NCBI GenBank assembly: GCA_951406725.2 | Contig: OX597814.1 | Coordinates: forward strand, 45,756,001-45,820,000 | Direction: 5' to 3' | Length of the DNA stretch: 64,000 nucleotides | DNA from: Octopus vulgaris | Lineage: Eukaryota | Program-made: the position numbers and the translations under genes | Notes under the pieces: generated by a model | The model's input: only the letters and a program-made list of their open reading frames with translations | Told to the model about the DNA's origin: nothing | Database searches by the model: none | Shown here: piece after piece, positions 24,145 through 63,106 of the stretch | Layout: each line of letters opens with the position of its first letter | How positions within the stretch are numbered: the first letter of the stretch is position 1

Positions 24145-24690
24145 TTATTCAGGCAAATATTGATATAAGTTTACAGTGGGAGATAAGGACTTAACGATCA
24201 AACGTGTGCCATTGCATTGTTTTGGGGGAACCAAATTTCTGATGAGCATTATAGGGGCACCAACTTTAAGTTTGAGAAAGTGTGGTGGTAGTCCGGGATG
24301 CTCAAAGGAATTGAGTACCTCTATTGGATAGTTGATGACGTCCTCTGGGTCAGGAGTTGTATCGATAGACTGATATACATAGACTTCCCCAGGAATGAGT
24401 TTTAGCATTTCATCATTAATATGGTGAACAGTTTTATTCCTCGGGGCCAGTATAGCCTTTTTGCCAATCCAATCCATATTCTGATAATTAGCTTGTAGAT
24501 CTGGGAACACTGCATCTCTGAGATCAGAAGGCATCTTAACAATGGTACAAATGGAATCGATGGCAATATTACCATTTTCATCCCCTGGTATTTTGCCTTC
24601 GCCAAGTGCAAGGAGGGTGTGAGGAAATGCTGCTGATGTGATATTACGTCGCATATGAGCACGCATATTGGTGTGAAGTTTGAGAGTTAC
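24145..24690 (-). pseudogene. Helitron RepHel Pif1-family helicase internal fragment
   Basis: LHTNMRA...LLALGEG...AILAPRN...YPIEVLNS...GLPPHFLKLKVGAPIMLIRNL...CNGTRLIV are hallmark Helitron Pif1 motifs. Truncated at both ends. Confidence 0.92.
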
Positions 24691-24914
24691 TTCCCTTTAT
24701 TAAAAAAAATATGCATTAAAATGGAAAAAAATGATGGTAAATTATTTGTAAAATCATAGACTCATCGTAGACGCGCGCTAATACCCAGAAGGGCTCGATA
24801 TGAATCACGACTATAAGATACCCGGTTTTAGTTAAACTGCATTGCAAAATGTGGGAGTAGTTAGGAATCTAAATCGGAGTAGACAGACACACAACCTTTC
24901 TTTTATATATAAAT

Positions 24915-28026: not shown

Positions 28027-29346
28027 GGAAGCCAGCTAGTCTCCTGATAACCTATCAATCAGGTGACTCTGCTTGCCAGATCGATTTCATTCTCACAAGA
28101 CAGCGGCATGCATGGTTGCTCTTAAATACAAAGACCCACCCTAGTGAAGAGTGTAACTTTTACTCGAGGCTTGAAGGATGCCAAAAAGCACACCAATCTG
28201 GAAAAGAAGGACTTGGAAGCTTAGGAATCCTTCACATGGTCAGAGATTTAGGGATATGCTTGTAGCTCTATCTACCAAATTTGTAGCTGGTGCAAAGTCC
28301 CTTCCAGACCTAGGGTGACATGGTAATAGAACAATACTGTAGACAGGGCCATTAGAACAAAGAAACAGATTTGGAATGCCTGGAAGAGTAGGGGTAGCAG
28401 TAGAATGTATCAGATAGCCAAAAGGGAAGCAAAGAGACAGGTATATACAGTCAAGGGAGTAGCAGAAAAGAAGTTTGACAATGTTCAACAATGTGATGAC
28501 CAAAGAACTGAAGTATTTCAGATTGCAAGACAGTGTGTGAGAGAAAACCGTGATGTCATAGGAGAGAAATGTGTCCGCATGGATGATGGTACCTTTGCGT
28601 TTAAAGATTCTGCAAAGAAAGAGGCTTGGAGAATCCATTATGAAAGACTGTTGAATGTGGAGAATGAATGGGAGAAGAGTCTGCCAAAAGTTGACCCAAA
28701 TGAGGGACCAGCTATCCAAATTGACATTACCCAGGTACATAAAGCAATTAAGGATATGAAGACAGAGAAAGCACCTGGCCCATTAGGATTCACTGCTGGG
28801 ATGCTTAAAATATCGGGTGGTGTGGGTTATGGTCTTGTCACCTGCATCGGAAATCAGATAGTTCATGAAGGAGTTGTACAAAATGACTGGTGTAGCAGCA
28901 CCACAGTCAACTGCTACAAGGGGAAAGGTGATGTTTTAGATAGAACTACAGGCATATCAAATTATTGGATCAGGTGATGAAAGTTACAGAGAGGGTCATA
29001 GCCCAACTAATTAGGGAGAGAGTTAGCCTAGATGAAATGCAGTTTGGTTTTGTGCCAGTCAGTTTAGATGAGATGCAGTTTGGGTTCATGCCAGGGAAAA
29101 GCACTACTGATGCTATATTTCTGGTAAGGCAACTGCAGGAGAAATACCTGGCCAAAGATAAACCTCTGTTCTTGGCTTTTGTTGACTTGGAGAAAGCCTT
29201 TGACAGGGTCCCCCTGATCCCTTATCTGGTGGTCAATGCAGAAACTAGGGATAGATGAGTGGCTGGGAAGAGCTGTACAAGCCCTGTACAGGGATGCTGT
29301 CAGTAAGGTGAGGGTTTGCAATGAGTATAGTCAAGAATTCCGAGTA
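28027..29346 (+). mobile_element. RTE LINE internal fragment (APE end to RT N-half), frameshifted
   Basis: LITYQSG..CQIDFILTR, AIKDMKTEKAPGP, YKGKGD, QFGFMPGKSTTDAIFLVRQLQEK, AFVDLEKAFDRVP. Confidence 0.92.
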
Positions 29347-29778: not shown

Positions 29779-29816
<38 letters not shown>

Positions 29817-29846
29817 GCGAGAATGAAGCAACAAGAATGGATAGGT

Positions 29847-29937
29847 TTTTAGTACAATCGTTTCATACAAGGACAGGTTTTATTAAAAGTTGCAAAAATT
29901 ACAGCATATAAACGTGTCCCGTACTCATCAGCTAAAA
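29847..29937 (-). ncRNA. Type I hammerhead ribozyme motif (left-arm copy)
   Basis: Reverse complement of 30395-30484 with one extra base in the stem II loop. Confidence 0.8.
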
Positions 29938-30394
29938 TACATGTGAGTTCTCTAGACATCCTAGTGGTTGAGGCTATACTCATGAAGTAATGTAGATAAT
30001 TAAGTAACATAAACAGATTTCAAACGTTCATTAAAGTTCTTTAAAGATGATGTACAGTCTTATCACAGAATTTTAAAAAAGTCTTAATAGCATCACAGAG
30101 AAGGTGACCTAATCCATAGTGCACATATGAATTTCCAGAGATATGATGAGGGATTACATCATTATGATGAGTATGTAATCCCTCATCATATCTCTGGAAA
30201 TTCATATGTGCACTATGGATTAGGTCACCTTCTCTGTGATGCTATTAAGACTTTTTTAAAATTCTGTGATAAGACTGTACATCATCTTTAAAGAACTTTA
30301 ATGAACGTTTGAAATCTGTTTATGTTACTTAATTATCTACATTACTTCATGAGTATAGCCTCAACCACTAGGATGTCTAGAGAACTCACATGTA

Positions 30395-30484
30395 TTTTAG
30401 CTGATGAGTACGGGACACGTTTATATGCTGTAATTTTGCAACTTTTAATAAAACCTGTCCTTGTATGAAACGATTGTACTAAAA
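30395..30484 (+). ncRNA. Type I hammerhead ribozyme motif (right-arm copy)
   Basis: Stem I TTTTAG/CTAAAA, core CTGATGA (30401-30407), long stem II GTACGGGACA...TGTCCTTGTAT, GAAA (30467-30470), minimal stem III C-GATT-G, cleavage triplet GUA with cut after 30478. Confidence 0.82.
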
Positions 30485-32023
30485 ACCTATCCATTCTTGT
30501 TGCTTCATTCTCGCTTATAATCACCCCACATTACTGTATTGTTAAATCAGTATAGTTTTTTTTGGTGCATCTAAGTTAGGTACCATATTCAAGTAAATTC
30601 ATTTAAATTAACTTGAATCTTTATTGCTTTTTGAATATATATATATATATATATATATGTTGTTTACACGGTTTTTCTATGCTAGCATGGGTTGGATGAA
30701 TACATGGTATTAATGCATTGTTTGATGCTCTTCCTGCTATGAATGTTACATTTGTACACATGAAAAATAGACTGCCAGTGTTGCTCAAATTATAACAGAA
30801 TGAAATTTAAAAATCATCAAACCTTGGTGCACTGTGTCATCTGTCCCTCTTTACAACTAATTGTGAATTTTAGAAACATCTATTTGTATTTCTATGTCTG
30901 CATTTGAAATCACTTGCTTAAAAGCAATCACTTTTGTATTTCAAACAGAAATCTAAAAAAAATTTTTTAATTCAATTTAAATTACAGTAAGGATGTTATT
31001 TCAAAAGTCCAAGGTTATAATTTTTAACATTTTCTTTTTATGAATAATTTTATTTTAGAAAGTAATAGGTTTGTTTAGCAATATAATTACTATCTTTCAT
31101 TCTTCTACTTTTTAAACGCAGCCATGCTGAAACAAGCAGCTAACTTCAGAACAACTTCCAAAATTAAAAGGCTCCTCTCTTCACCCTTTGGTCTACATTG
31201 TTCAAAAACTTTGCTTAACTGATCTTAATGGGGGTGACTCCTCTGCTTGTTGTTTTTAGTATTAAACACTCCGAGACAAAGTGTCTACTAATTGCTTGGA
31301 TAATCTGAAATAATTCAAGTTCTCCAACTTCCTGTATTACATATTACACACGCAACCATATTTGTACAACTATATATAGACTATTTGTTTTTAGTTTTGT
31401 AATGAGCCCATACAACTAATTTTACAAACAGTGTTTCTTCCAGAGTTGTCTCACTGCTGAAAACCATTAATGGATGTATGTATATCTATTAATATGTGTT
31501 TACATTTGCCTTTATAATGTCAATATAGCAATTAGTAAGATACTGTATTTATTTAGTTATATATATTGAGGTTAATGATCTCTTTCTTTTTACTCTTGCA
31601 ACTTGAGATCTACTCTAGTGTTTGTTGCATACATATACAAGGTAACTGAAATTAATTAAAATAGTTGCTTTAGATACCATATGGGATGTGAAAAACATGC
31701 ATTACACTATCAAAGTGGATTGTAGGCAATTTATTAGTAGATAAAAAAGCTTATGGGTATGTAAAAAAAAAAGGGGGGGGGGCTGGGGCTCTGATAAGAA
31801 AATAAGAAAACTTTTATATATCAACAATGATTTTCCTAAAACAAAAACAGTAGCTTAGCTACAAAAATAGTAGCTTAGCTAAAAGTAGTTTTAATGAAAT
31901 TTGCCAATTATATTTCAAAACTAAATCACTTAGAAAACACAAGATTTGTATCTTGAAACAAAAAAGTTGTTCAAAGAATGTACATTTCCAAAATAGTTTT
32001 CAGAACTTTAGTAGTAAGGAGTA

Positions 32024-36370: not shown

Positions 36371-37750
36371 GAGGCAGATGAAGCAGTGCTGAATGAAATA
36401 TAGGATGTAGAAAGGACTTCTGGCTGTGGAAATAGTCTCCAGGAAAAAATTCTCTTCAATGTGTGAAAATACATTATTGGATTGTAGGATGCATCATTAT
36501 GTTTCATCAGCTACAAATACTAAATCAGTCTTTCATAGCCCTGCAAATCTGATGACATCTTTCTCAGCCCAGTGATGTGTTTTCAATATTTTGTTAATGA
36601 GGAGAATTTTCTCCCAAGACTATTTCCACAGCCAAAAAAAATCTTACTACATCTAAATATATATGAATGTATTAAATATGATTGTACACACATAAATAAC
36701 AATGATTATATTTTCCTATTAAATTTTACACTGTTGCAAAATCTACTGGTTTTTATTCATCAACGTGCCAACAAGTAACTCACTGTATCTTTTTGCCCTA
36801 TCAAGAGAGAATTGCATCAGTAATATATCTCCAACTACAGTATTCCTAATTTAACAACAGCTGAGCAGTGAAAGAAACTATGAATCATTTCTTGACAGAC
36901 ACAATAAACAAAGTATTTTTACTGTTATTTTTTTAACGACTATGTATAATGCATATATGAAACACACATTAAAATACCATATACATATAGGTATAGTCTT
37001 TTAATATGTGTACTTTATGTATTAAGTAACATTGGGCTTATGGGCAGTGTATTTGCGGGCAGGTAAAGAAAGTACGCAGTTGCTAATGACAATTCCAATA
37101 AGAATTGAGACATGCTTATAACTGATTTGTCTTTATCTGTCCATGCATATACTAAACAGAACTGCCAATGGGAGATATCTGCAGTATGCCAGACAACCAA
37201 CCACATTACCAAATATACTATAGTGCCCACCAAATTAGTACTTACAAATGCCTTATTGAATAAGCAAGCATTATTCTTTACCATCACTGCTGCCACTACT
37301 ACATGTCTCGCGCATAAATCATCAATATTTTAGTAGTTCTCTCTCTCCCTCTCTCTGTATACATATATATATATATAAGTGTTTGGTATGAGACATTAAA
37401 CATTTTTCCAGAATGTAAAAATGGAATTCTCAATCCCTGACTTATGAACACTGTTATCCAGCATATGCATCTCTTTTCAACATGGTGTTACTTATTGTTT
37501 ATCAAACTTGCTTAAATGTGGAAAAGGCACATAGACAGACTTCCCATATAAATAGCTTTCACTGGTTAAAAAAAAAATTTACTGGAATATTTAGAGCTGG
37601 AAGAAGGAGGGTATTTTTAAAATACCAGTTCTGAAAAGGCTTGCCCCATCTTTTGGCACTAACAAAAAAGGTTGCAAATGAAGGTAGATATGGTTTCAGC
37701 TATTCCTCTGGACTGGCTTAAATACACTATATATATATATATATATATTT

Positions 37751-61253: not shown

Positions 61254-63106
61254 GGTGATGAAGGTCATGGAGAGGGTCATAGCCCAACTAATTAGGGAGA
61301 GAGTCTGTTTAGATGAGATGCAGTTTGATTTTGTACCAGGGAAAAGCAACACTGATGCTATATTCCTGGTAAAGCACTGCAGGAGAAATACTTAACAAAA
61401 GATAAATCCCTATACTTGGCTTTTGTTGACTTGGAGAAGGCCTTTGACAAGGTTCCCGAATCCCTTATTTGGTGGGTGATGCAGAAACTAGGGATTAACT
61501 AGTGGTTAATAAGAGCTGCACAGGCCCTGTACAGAGATGCTACTAGTAAGGTTAGGGTTGGCAATGAGTATAGTGAAGAATTCTGGGTAGAAGTAGGGGT
61601 TCGCCAAGGATCAGCCCTCAACCCACCTCTTCTTCATCATAGTCCTCCAGGCAATAACAGAGGAATTCAAGACATGATGCCTCTGGGAGCTCCTCTATGC
61701 TGATGACCTTGCTCTCATAGAACTAGAGAAGTAATTTCAGGTATAGAAGCAAGGTTTAGAATCGAAGGGCCTTAGAGTCAATGTTGCAAAAACCAAAGTC
61801 CAAGTAAGTAGGAAGGCGAACACATCACAAGTCACTTCAGGTAGATGGCCCTACTTGATCTGTAGGAAAGGTGTAGGGAGAAACTCCATAAGATGTACTC
61901 AGTGTAAGCTGTGGATGCATAAGAGGTGCAGCAACATCAAAGGAAGGTTAACTGGGATGATAGCTTTTGTGTGCAGCAGATGCACAGGGGCAATAAGCAT
62001 CGCAGATGCTCAGAAAACAGATTCCATCACATGCCAGTGGAAGAAACTGGAAGTAGTTGATAGCTTCCGCTACCTAGGTGACCAAGTCTGTAGTGGGGTT
62101 GGGTGCTCAGAGAGCATTGCCACTAGAATAAGAATAGCTTGGGCAAAGTTCAGAAAGCTCCTACCGCTACTGGTAACAAAGGGCCTCTCACTCAGAGTGA
62201 AAGGCAGAATGTATGATGCATGTGTGCAAACTGCCATGCTACACAGCAGTGAAACATGGGCCGTGACTGCTAAAGACGTGCGTAGGCTTGAAAGAAATGA
62301 AGCTAGTGTGATCCACTGGATGTGTAATGTCAGTGTGCACACACGACAGAGTGTAAGCATCTTGAGAGAAATATTGGACATAAGAAGCATCAGATGTGGT
62401 GTGCAAGAGAGACAAATGCACTGGTATGGTCATGTGCTGCGTATGAATGAGGAGAGCTGTGCGAAGAAGTGTCACTCCCTAACACTGGAAGGAACTCATG
62501 GAAGAGGGAGACCCAGGAAGACATGGGATGAGGTGGTGAAACATGACCTTCGAACGTTGAGCCTCACAGAGGCAATGAAGAAAGATCGAGACCTCTGGAA
62601 ATATGCTGTGATTGAGAAGACCTGGCAAGTAAAGGGAGATCACAGCTGTAGCCTATATCAATGCTGCATAACTAACCCATTTAAAAAGTACCTTGAATCG
62701 TCGGGCAACACGCTGTGCTTGAGGAGACCTGTTGAGTCAAGTAAAATCAAAAATCAAGTCACAATCAAATAGAAATTGTAGTTGTGGCTGATGCCAGTGC
62801 CGCTTGACTGGCTCCCTGTGCTGGTGGCATGTAAGAAGCCAGCCCTGACTGGCTCCTATGCCTGTAGCACATAAAAAGTACCATATGAATGTGGCCGATG
62901 CCAGTACCGCCTGACTGGCACCTGTGCTGGTGGCACGTAAAAAGCACCCACTGCATTCTCGGAGTGGTTGGCGTTAGGAAGGGCATCCAGCTGTAGAAAC
63001 CTTACCAGATCAGATTGGAGCCTGGTGTGGCCTCCTGGTTTGCCAGTCCCCAGTCAAACCGTCTAACCCATGCCAGCATGGAAAGCAGACGTTAAATGAT
63101 GATGAT
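61254..63106 (+). mobile_element. 5'-truncated RTE LINE: RT domain, C-terminus, 3' UTR and (GAT)n tail
   Basis: QFDFVPGKSNTDAIF, FVDLEKAFDKV, GVRQGSAL, LLYADDL, FRYLG, RIRIAWAKFRKL, WYGHVLRM, GRGRPRKTW. Stops and frameshifts present. Confidence 0.95.

Follow-up and report, generated by a model that had tools for sequence, protein, structure and literature searches.

The near-perfect hairpin at positions 29817-30514 of the window (the whole 64,000-nt stretch of Octopus vulgaris DNA analysed here) very probably derives from a young Penelope-like element (PLE) of the Hydra clade, inserted in non-coding form into a (TA)n microsatellite and composed of two 5'-truncated hammerhead ends that lie head-to-head and likely arose in one event from one template. 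Its arms match the pLTR of an element that encodes both a reverse transcriptase (RT) and a GIY-YIG endonuclease, its target is a (TA)n run, one arm has a short end and the other a long end, and the two arms share a haplotype.

The left arm (29817-30159) is 343 nt and the right arm (30173-30514) 342 nt, the spacer between them is 13 nt, and the sole difference between the arms is one base of a T run within stem II. These dimensions, together with a hammerhead on each strand, recover what a preliminary description had reported; that description had also drawn the hairpin from 29817 to 30634, and while its arms stand, positions 30515-30633 lie outside them and are the one-sided tail of the element. 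From left to right, the locus begins with a (TA)n target microsatellite (29783-29815), assigned from sequence and matched by TA runs flanking all 38 pairs examined, and with an extra base, C29816, at the short-end junction. An inverted, 5'-truncated pLTR copy on the minus strand (29817-30159) then stops at the short end site, which lies 36 nt past the hammerhead cut (+36), and carries a type I hammerhead (29847-29937, minus strand) whose 60-nt stem II has the family-majority length. An 8-nt junction insert (30160-30167), probably a short fold-back copy of the adjoining element sequence, leads to the sense pLTR copy (30168-30514, plus strand), itself 5'-truncated at about -311; the other five spacer bases, TGAGT, are element sequence, and only the 8 nt constitute the insert. 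The sense copy includes a T>G variant at 30307, mirrored at 30025 in the other arm, that has two matches genome-wide, both in the hairpin arms. It also includes a type I hammerhead (30395-30484, plus strand) with a 6-bp stem I, a CUGAUGA/GAA core, a 59-nt stem II, a self-complementary stem III (ACGAUUGU) and a predicted cut after 30478; AATAAA, a candidate poly(A) signal, in the 3' strand of stem II (30447-30452, plus strand), 26 nt upstream of the position of predicted cleavage; and a U/GU-rich block, TTCTTGTTGCTT (30491-30505, plus strand), which is conserved across subfamilies and lies between the cut and the short end site. The tail (30515-30633, plus strand) is 119 nt of the parent 5' UTR that ends at the long end site (+155) and contains two hairpins, at about 30533-30556 and at 30587-30618 (folding z -3.1), and the right-hand (TA)n target microsatellite (30634-30658) follows, its first 7 nt also matching the parent's own sequence. 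The absence of an ORF, which had been singled out as unusual, is explained by the 5' truncation of the element.

Other repeats surround the insertion. Decayed reverse transcriptase fragments at 28330-29340, 470 bp left of the hairpin, and at 61747-62772 have motifs that we take to be LINE-like and of RTE type, and a 183-aa frame at 24145-24696 on the minus strand presumably resembles a Pif1/Helitron helicase fragment. CTGATGA additionally occurs on opposite strands at 36549 (plus) and 36510 (minus), with similar sequence after each, possibly marking a short decayed inverted repeat at about 36440-36620.

Dispersed copies with 99% identity to the hairpin arm are numerous in the 2.8-Gb genome (45 matches among the best 40 scored of 1373 candidates), and a 33-nt piece of the hammerhead has 880 exact matches and none in the control. 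The parent with RT and GIY-YIG domains that the preliminary description had proposed to seek by blast exists at full length elsewhere in the genome, in two of the seven long loci retrieved (L033 and L037), each built of two pLTRs that flank a 953-aa ORF (counted from Met) and a 3' UTR, the second pLTR having a tail with (TA)n at its end, in a unit of ~4.67 kb; direct pLTRs are present in L033, L037 and L038. Sub-regions of the parent ORF have weak Pfam matches to RVT_1 (E 0.0017) and, at the C terminus, to GIY-YIG (E 0.0056), both under the curated cut-offs; the whole 953-aa ORF had no Pfam match, and a PDB sequence search with a 21-protein profile returned only two chance matches. The alignment of these 21 proteins, the query and 20 of its 33 homologues (the one named homologue among the 33 being labelled Octopus sinensis), preserves YRDD in 21 of 21 sequences, RWK at 37 in 18, DKT at 124 in 20, and the cysteine motifs CxCx5C (CKCRIKSKC at 814), CxxC (CQLC at 911) and CxH (CVH at 941), while a CCHH motif is absent from the parent translation as judged by reading it. 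According to section 11 of PMC8557442, RWK, DKT, CxCx5C, CxxC and CxH are marks of the Hydra clade, RWK and DKT lying towards the N terminus of the RT, CxCx5C in the linker, and CxxC and CxH about the conserved E and N; the lack of CCHH and the (TA)n target likewise match features of that clade. The ~4.67-kb unit departs from the clade's descriptive size of <3 kb, the excess being due to an Asn-rich insert and a long 3' UTR. In the L033 ORF this insert (residues ~520-820, 30% Asn) lies in frame between the RT thumb and the endonuclease, and it varies in length among subfamilies, whose open frames span 842-1091 aa. The element further displays the hallmarks of EN+ Penelope-like elements, namely an ORF with RT and GIY-YIG, a pLTR, inverted truncated copies and a one-sided tail. 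We therefore assign the parent, by its motifs and by comparison by eye with the printed Hydra-1_Obim and other members, to a probable new family of young Hydra-clade PLEs, which appears to differ from Hydra-1_Obim in hammerhead sequence and in length. Its youth is evident from the 99% identical copies and several open 980-aa frames, and it has several hundred insertions.

The head-to-head layout is routine within this family. The first 100 of the 880 places represent 62 insertions, of which 36 have an adjacent -/+ pair within 10 kb and none a +/- pair; two further insertions proved to be pairs, for a total of 38 of 62, and every one of the 38 ends in TA runs on both sides. Nine head-to-head pairs from several families were also counted by eye among the first 100 hammerhead motifs listed. 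The layout is moreover already published (Arkhipova et al. 2013, Cervera and De la Pena 2014, Craig et al. 2021): opposite-strand hammerhead pairs 100-700 bp apart are reported in PMC4209133, and in Files S1 and S2 of PMC8557442 Penelope-13_HM is listed with an inverted copy and with hammerheads on both strands, an arrangement also described for Schistosoma. At one extreme of the size range, the near-full-length elements L146 and L147 (G000:C2:37617272-37627787) lie head-to-head over 10.5 kb with four hammerheads and one open 981-residue frame. At another locus, L017/L018 (G000:C3:34261214-34261918), an independent-looking insertion is truncated at nearly the same point as the hairpin, with an almost equal fold-back insert and a near-identical junction, and one arm of L118 ends at that point too; these shared ends suggest that a small inverted match there is a hot spot for junctions.

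What distinguishes the pairs is the regularity of their outer ends. By BLAST end points, all 38 pairs combine an arm that stops near +36, counted from the cut, with one that stops near +155 (L146/L147 being entered by their outer ends), which leaves a 119-nt tail on one side and has a probability of 3.6e-12 if ends are independent at 50:50. Solo copies use either end (seven short and four long among 11), and related subfamilies also have two ends, at about +35 to +40 and at +105 to +157. Immediately downstream of each end site the element has a TATA, then a CCC run and a small hairpin. The majority of junctions read G|TATA, and 26 of 43 short-end junctions show an additional G that the element lacks there, the same extra base as C29816; synthesis may begin with the addition of a C, or an interrupted TA run may have served as target. 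The UTR from hammerhead to start codon folds well in three of the four families tested (z -4.7, -5.5, -2.4 and -0.7), that of L055 folding no better than shuffles (z -0.7). A 9-bp stem encloses the long end site with few compensatory changes, and covariation in the 5' UTR is thin, at 4 of 32 pairs in nine sequences and 9 of 29 in seven sequences, one family of the latter being poorly aligned. Contigs from four sequencing runs that match L033:1320-5830 have loose TA ends at both end sites, RNA ends being beyond such contigs, and none of the 24 listed among 56 matches has a loose end at the predicted cut.

The two arms also nearly always share their haplotype. In the proximal 560 nt of 37 pairs, 64 of 65 occurrences of common minor alleles are in both arms; the figure is 94 of 104 over the whole arms of 50 pairs, 13 of which were drawn from top-matching loci rather than the positional sample. 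Stretches of low complexity, alignment columns close to gaps and the initial 12-15 aligned bases are excluded from these counts, and a minor allele that is informative in both arms is present in only 21 of the 50 pairs. Six of the 10 discordant alleles belong to a single pair, L131 (G000:C1:224764000-224769750), which has equal 2.6-kb arms and a 20-nt palindromic junction; its arms differ at six common polymorphisms between -2210 and -1062 and share eight, likely through a template switch between source haplotypes, and at least one pair thus drew partly on two templates. One or two arm differences each are also present in L095, L032 and L034, those of L032 and L034 beside a low-complexity tract. 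Variants confined to a single locus have different spectra when shared (30 in both arms, 23 of them from A/T) and when private to one arm (17, of which 12 from G/C; Fisher p 0.002). Four shared variants were tested genome-wide: two, including T>G at 30307, are unique to their pair, and two mark rare source haplotypes of 7 and 14 copies. A-to-I editing is not supported as the source of the shared variants, A>G accounting for only 7 of the 30, beside five T>G, five A>T and five T>C. The sharing of haplotypes fits one RNA copied from two start sites.

With respect to the ribozyme itself, stem I of the plus-strand hammerhead (TTTTAG at 30395-30400 with CTAAAA at 30479-30484) encloses CTGATGA (30401-30407), stem II (30408-30466, 59 nt), GAA, and stem III, ACGATTGT (30470-30477), with the predicted cut after A30478; the minus-strand copy is mirrored at 29937-29847 with a 60-nt stem II. 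The near-palindromic CGATTG of the preliminary description is real as a palindrome, but its extent was understated: the whole octamer ACGATTGT is self-complementary, all eight of its bases being able to pair with those of another copy, two of them through G-U. An Rfam scan returned no hammerhead family among 36 matches at E<=5 and only generic miRNA-hairpin matches below threshold, a miss likely caused by the long stem II. The 101-nt motif alone folds no better than shuffles (z -0.4), and in computed folding the active fold lies 2 kcal/mol above the minimum free energy. The case for a real hammerhead is comparative, and for it 70 distinct motifs were clustered at 80% into 23 families. The first four positions of stem I form 78 Watson-Crick pairs of 92, compared with 30 in shuffles (maximum 53), and stem II has a mean folding z of -2.3 against base shuffles. 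Among 10 aligned relatives, 93% of cells are paired and double changes number 21; none of 500 shuffles and none of the slid controls scores as high, although the kinship of the sequences inflates the shuffle test. For stem III, 45 of 46 inner positions pair, in families partly chosen by a pairing-favouring pattern. A pattern made up of the core, a stem II of 40-65 nt and a stem III able to pair matches the genome 20,874 times, compared with 124 for a reversed-pattern control and 326 for a non-pairing variant (64:1). Additionally, 20 loci picked by RT similarity yielded related subfamilies with stem II of 51-61 nt and self-complementary stem III octamers.

The expected covariation of stems I and II across family copies is thus present across subfamilies, and with the CUGANGA/GAAA core and NUH site it would place the motif among the type I minimal hammerheads, here in a PLE pLTR and with a stem III suited to dimer pairing, as had been supposed. 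That the motif is a chance likeness or a dead relic without ribozyme activity would agree with the missing Rfam match, with the z of -0.4 and with the 2-kcal/mol gap, and also with reports that minimal PLE hammerheads cut poorly in vitro (PMC4209133) and that cutting is dispensable for PAc insertion in vitro (PMC11167929); the invariant core, the stems covarying over 23 families and the 64:1 excess of pairing-compatible stem III nevertheless make it very unlikely. We accordingly regard the motif, on comparative evidence, as very probably a genuine hammerhead with predicted cleavage. Several of its apparent oddities prove ordinary. The closing position of stem II is G-C in nine of the 23 families, U-U in six and G-U in three, and the Hydra-clade hammerheads in File S2 of PMC8557442 span the same range, including G-U in Penelope-13_HM and Penelope-17_HM, so that the G-U closing pair is no anomaly; nor is a palindromic stem III, which is normal for the Hydra clade. 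The long stem II is a real variant relative to the published Hydra list, with precedent in File S2 only in the Selaginella PLE-X1 rows, but it is characteristic of the family and of the genome rather than of this locus. Many unrelated families carry long-stem-II hammerheads with a palindromic stem III (~20,900 pattern matches genome-wide), and at G000:C1:5011305-5012441 three identical hammerheads of another family lie in direct orientation at 534-nt spacing, possibly a tandem retrozyme-like array.

Stem II may have a further role. In eight related subfamilies it contains AATAAA or ATTAAA 16-26 nt before the cut, with a U/GU-rich block 12-25 nt after the cut. A hexamer AATAAA or ATTAAA followed by a U/GU-rich block is the anatomy of a poly(A) site, and the signal persists in L048 even though the rest of stem II is rewritten there. 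However, 14 of the 23 families lack a stem II AATAAA, the DNA is AT-rich, and the per-sequence chance in shuffles is 0.01-0.09. The hexamer was rejected as a feature of all long-stem-II hammerheads, being present in nine of 23 families of which eight form one related, non-independent group. That the signal is used seems possible but doubtful. The A-rich stretch of stem II might alternatively form a tertiary contact, against which its distance from the core, varying from 4 to 14 nt, can be set.

In the hairpin, predicted folding pairs 90 of 90 hammerhead bases with the left arm, and a read-through transcript of the fragment would form a 342-bp duplex burying the hammerhead. The earlier proposal that the hairpin masks its own ribozyme is in this respect upheld by folding, but the masking appears to be a by-product of insertion with no sign of function. 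The hammerhead in the fragment is, by this folding model, most likely silent. In the parent element it would be under selection and would cut as a dimer via the palindromic stem III, or with protein assistance; most likely it processes parent transcripts as a dimer. A reading of the hairpin as a functional unit in itself, either a retrozyme- or MITE-like element or an antisense switch controlling the ribozyme, could draw on the complete burial of the hammerhead and on the one other locus, L017/L018, with nearly the same arm length and junction. It is largely refuted, and we consider it most improbable: the truncation points of 37 pairs range from -47 to -3980 with no fixed unit, tandem monomers are absent, L017/L018 differs in junction and tail, and the 30307 variant occurs in no other copy, and the hairpin has therefore not been copied onward.

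For the origin of the paired arms, we propose a mechanism in which the element endonuclease would cut both (TA)n strands and each DNA end would prime reverse transcription on element RNA, one at about +36 and the other at about +155, and immediately downstream of either start site are a UAUA to which the TA primer could anneal and a small hairpin that is conserved. The two cDNAs would end prematurely, and their 3' ends would be joined by fold-back or microhomology, yielding the 8-nt insert. That both cut ends prime on one RNA, one per site, and that the truncated cDNAs are joined in this way, seems to us a roughly balanced proposition. In its favour, PMC11167929 describes a PLE protein by which both target strands are cut and extended, with initiation at two internal positions of the RNA that delimit the tail. 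In that work the PAc hammerhead is active only when protein is present. On the other side, the same source reports for PAc in vitro no start-site difference between strands and priming without target homology, unlike the priming supposed here; the two rare shared haplotypes (7 and 14 copies) are also explicable by one source locus giving two RNAs; and gene conversion after insertion could also homogenise the arms.

Two other origins start from the same element. The inverted arm might have formed by fold-back, one cDNA or antisense template priming itself at a palindrome so that the second arm is a DNA copy; an antisense-template origin was proposed by Arkhipova et al. (2013, PMC3846280), where junction palindromes are read as self-priming. 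Truncation points within 15 nt of each other in 14 of 37 pairs, compared with 1.7 expected and a maximum of 8 in 20,000 permutations, speak for it, as do the palindromes at which matched truncations often lie (for example at L117, L119, L131 and L143), the pair-unique variants present in both arms, and the resemblance of the junction at 30160-30167 to a short fold-back. Other junctions are overlaps of 1-7 nt or short inserts. However, 23 of the 37 pairs have unequal arms with the short-ended arm the longer in nine, pure self-copying leaves the constant stop at +36 (also used by 7 of 11 solos) unexplained, and the arms of L131 are equal in length yet differ at six polymorphic sites; we judge fold-back possible but doubtful. 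Alternatively, two RNAs from the same or different source loci might be used by the two halves of a protein dimer, with gene conversion evening out the arms later. Inverted repeats can undergo gene conversion, and the discordance of L131 would be accounted for directly. PAc is, additionally, predicted to be a dimer (PMC11167929). Two RNAs nevertheless give no reason for short/long pairing in 38 of 38 cases unless the dimer is asymmetric, and the differing spectra of shared and one-arm private variants are not those of plain conversion, though GC-biased conversion could produce them; we think this origin unlikely. A more elaborate version of the single-RNA mechanism would have one RNA used twice by a protein dimer at two structured UAUA sites, forcing one short and one tailed arm, and would have the poly(A) signal window of stem II overlap the ribozyme cut as a module that chooses among polyadenylated, ribozyme-cut and read-through RNA, the last holding both start sites. 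This combination is speculative and probably wrong in at least some part.

These results bear on a question long open for PLEs, the origin of inverted insertions and one-sided tails, which the counted rule of one short and one long end per pair with a shared haplotype informs. They also reveal ~21,000 long-stem-II motifs in one genome; Rfam missed the motif at the hairpin locus, and short-stem descriptors may miss such motifs. Perfect hairpins of about 300 bp such as this one would, were they transcribed within host genes, offer substrates for RNA editing or silencing. A search of mainly openly accessible literature found no paper on octopus hammerheads beyond Craig et al. (2021), no counted short/long end pairing and no poly(A) signal in PLE stem II. 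Within that scope, abundant long-stem-II hammerheads, the 38-of-38 short/long rule, the sharing of arm haplotypes and the AATAAA/ATTAAA in stem II were not found in print. The locus itself is ordinary, known in kind and a variant in stem II and tail length.

The closest known systems are the Hydra-clade PLEs (Craig et al. 2021, PMC8557442), which include Hydra-1_Obim and Penelope-13_HM and, in the sections concerned, are described with the same motifs, a C-terminal GIY-YIG, a (TA)n target and a pLTR hammerhead. Penelope-13_HM, like the element here, has an inverted 5'-truncated copy with a hammerhead per strand and a G-U at the foot of stem II. Whereas published Hydra members are mostly under 3 kb, the unit here is ~4.7 kb with a 953-aa ORF and Asn-rich insert, and its stem II measures 59-60 nt as compared with ~10-25 nt between core boxes in the Hydra rows of File S2 (22 nt in Hydra-1_Obim); the same file provides a precedent for a long loop II in Selaginella PLE-X1. 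Pen2 and Pen2a of Adineta vaga (PMC3846280; scheme in the legend to Fig. 2 of PMC8557442) share head-to-head truncation, palindromic or microhomology junctions, a one-arm tail and Asn-rich inserts, but their tail is described as 30-40 bp and 'optional', whereas here all 38 pairs have it, 119 nt long, on one arm and one only. The type I hammerheads of metazoan PLEs, as presented in PMC4209133, have in common with ours a short palindromic stem III, predicted dimer activity, thousands of copies per genome and closely spaced opposite-strand pairs; their stem II is 7-8 bp with a conserved G10.1-C11.1, in contrast to the extended, bulged stem of 45-65 nt seen here. PAc, the Poseidon element of Anolis (Frangieh et al. 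2024, PMC11167929), shares two RT start sites bounding a tail, the cutting and extension of both strands and, in its case, a protein-assisted hammerhead; it belongs to another clade, and its start sites lie inside the ORF without target homology, whereas ours lie in the 5' UTR next to UAUA. Finally, non-LTR retrozymes, as described in bioRxiv 10.64898/2026.07.22.740005, are likewise non-coding, carry a type I hammerhead and are kin of PLE pLTRs; they are head-to-tail tandem units, whereas the hairpin, which has no tandem unit, is a head-to-head fragment of an autonomous element.
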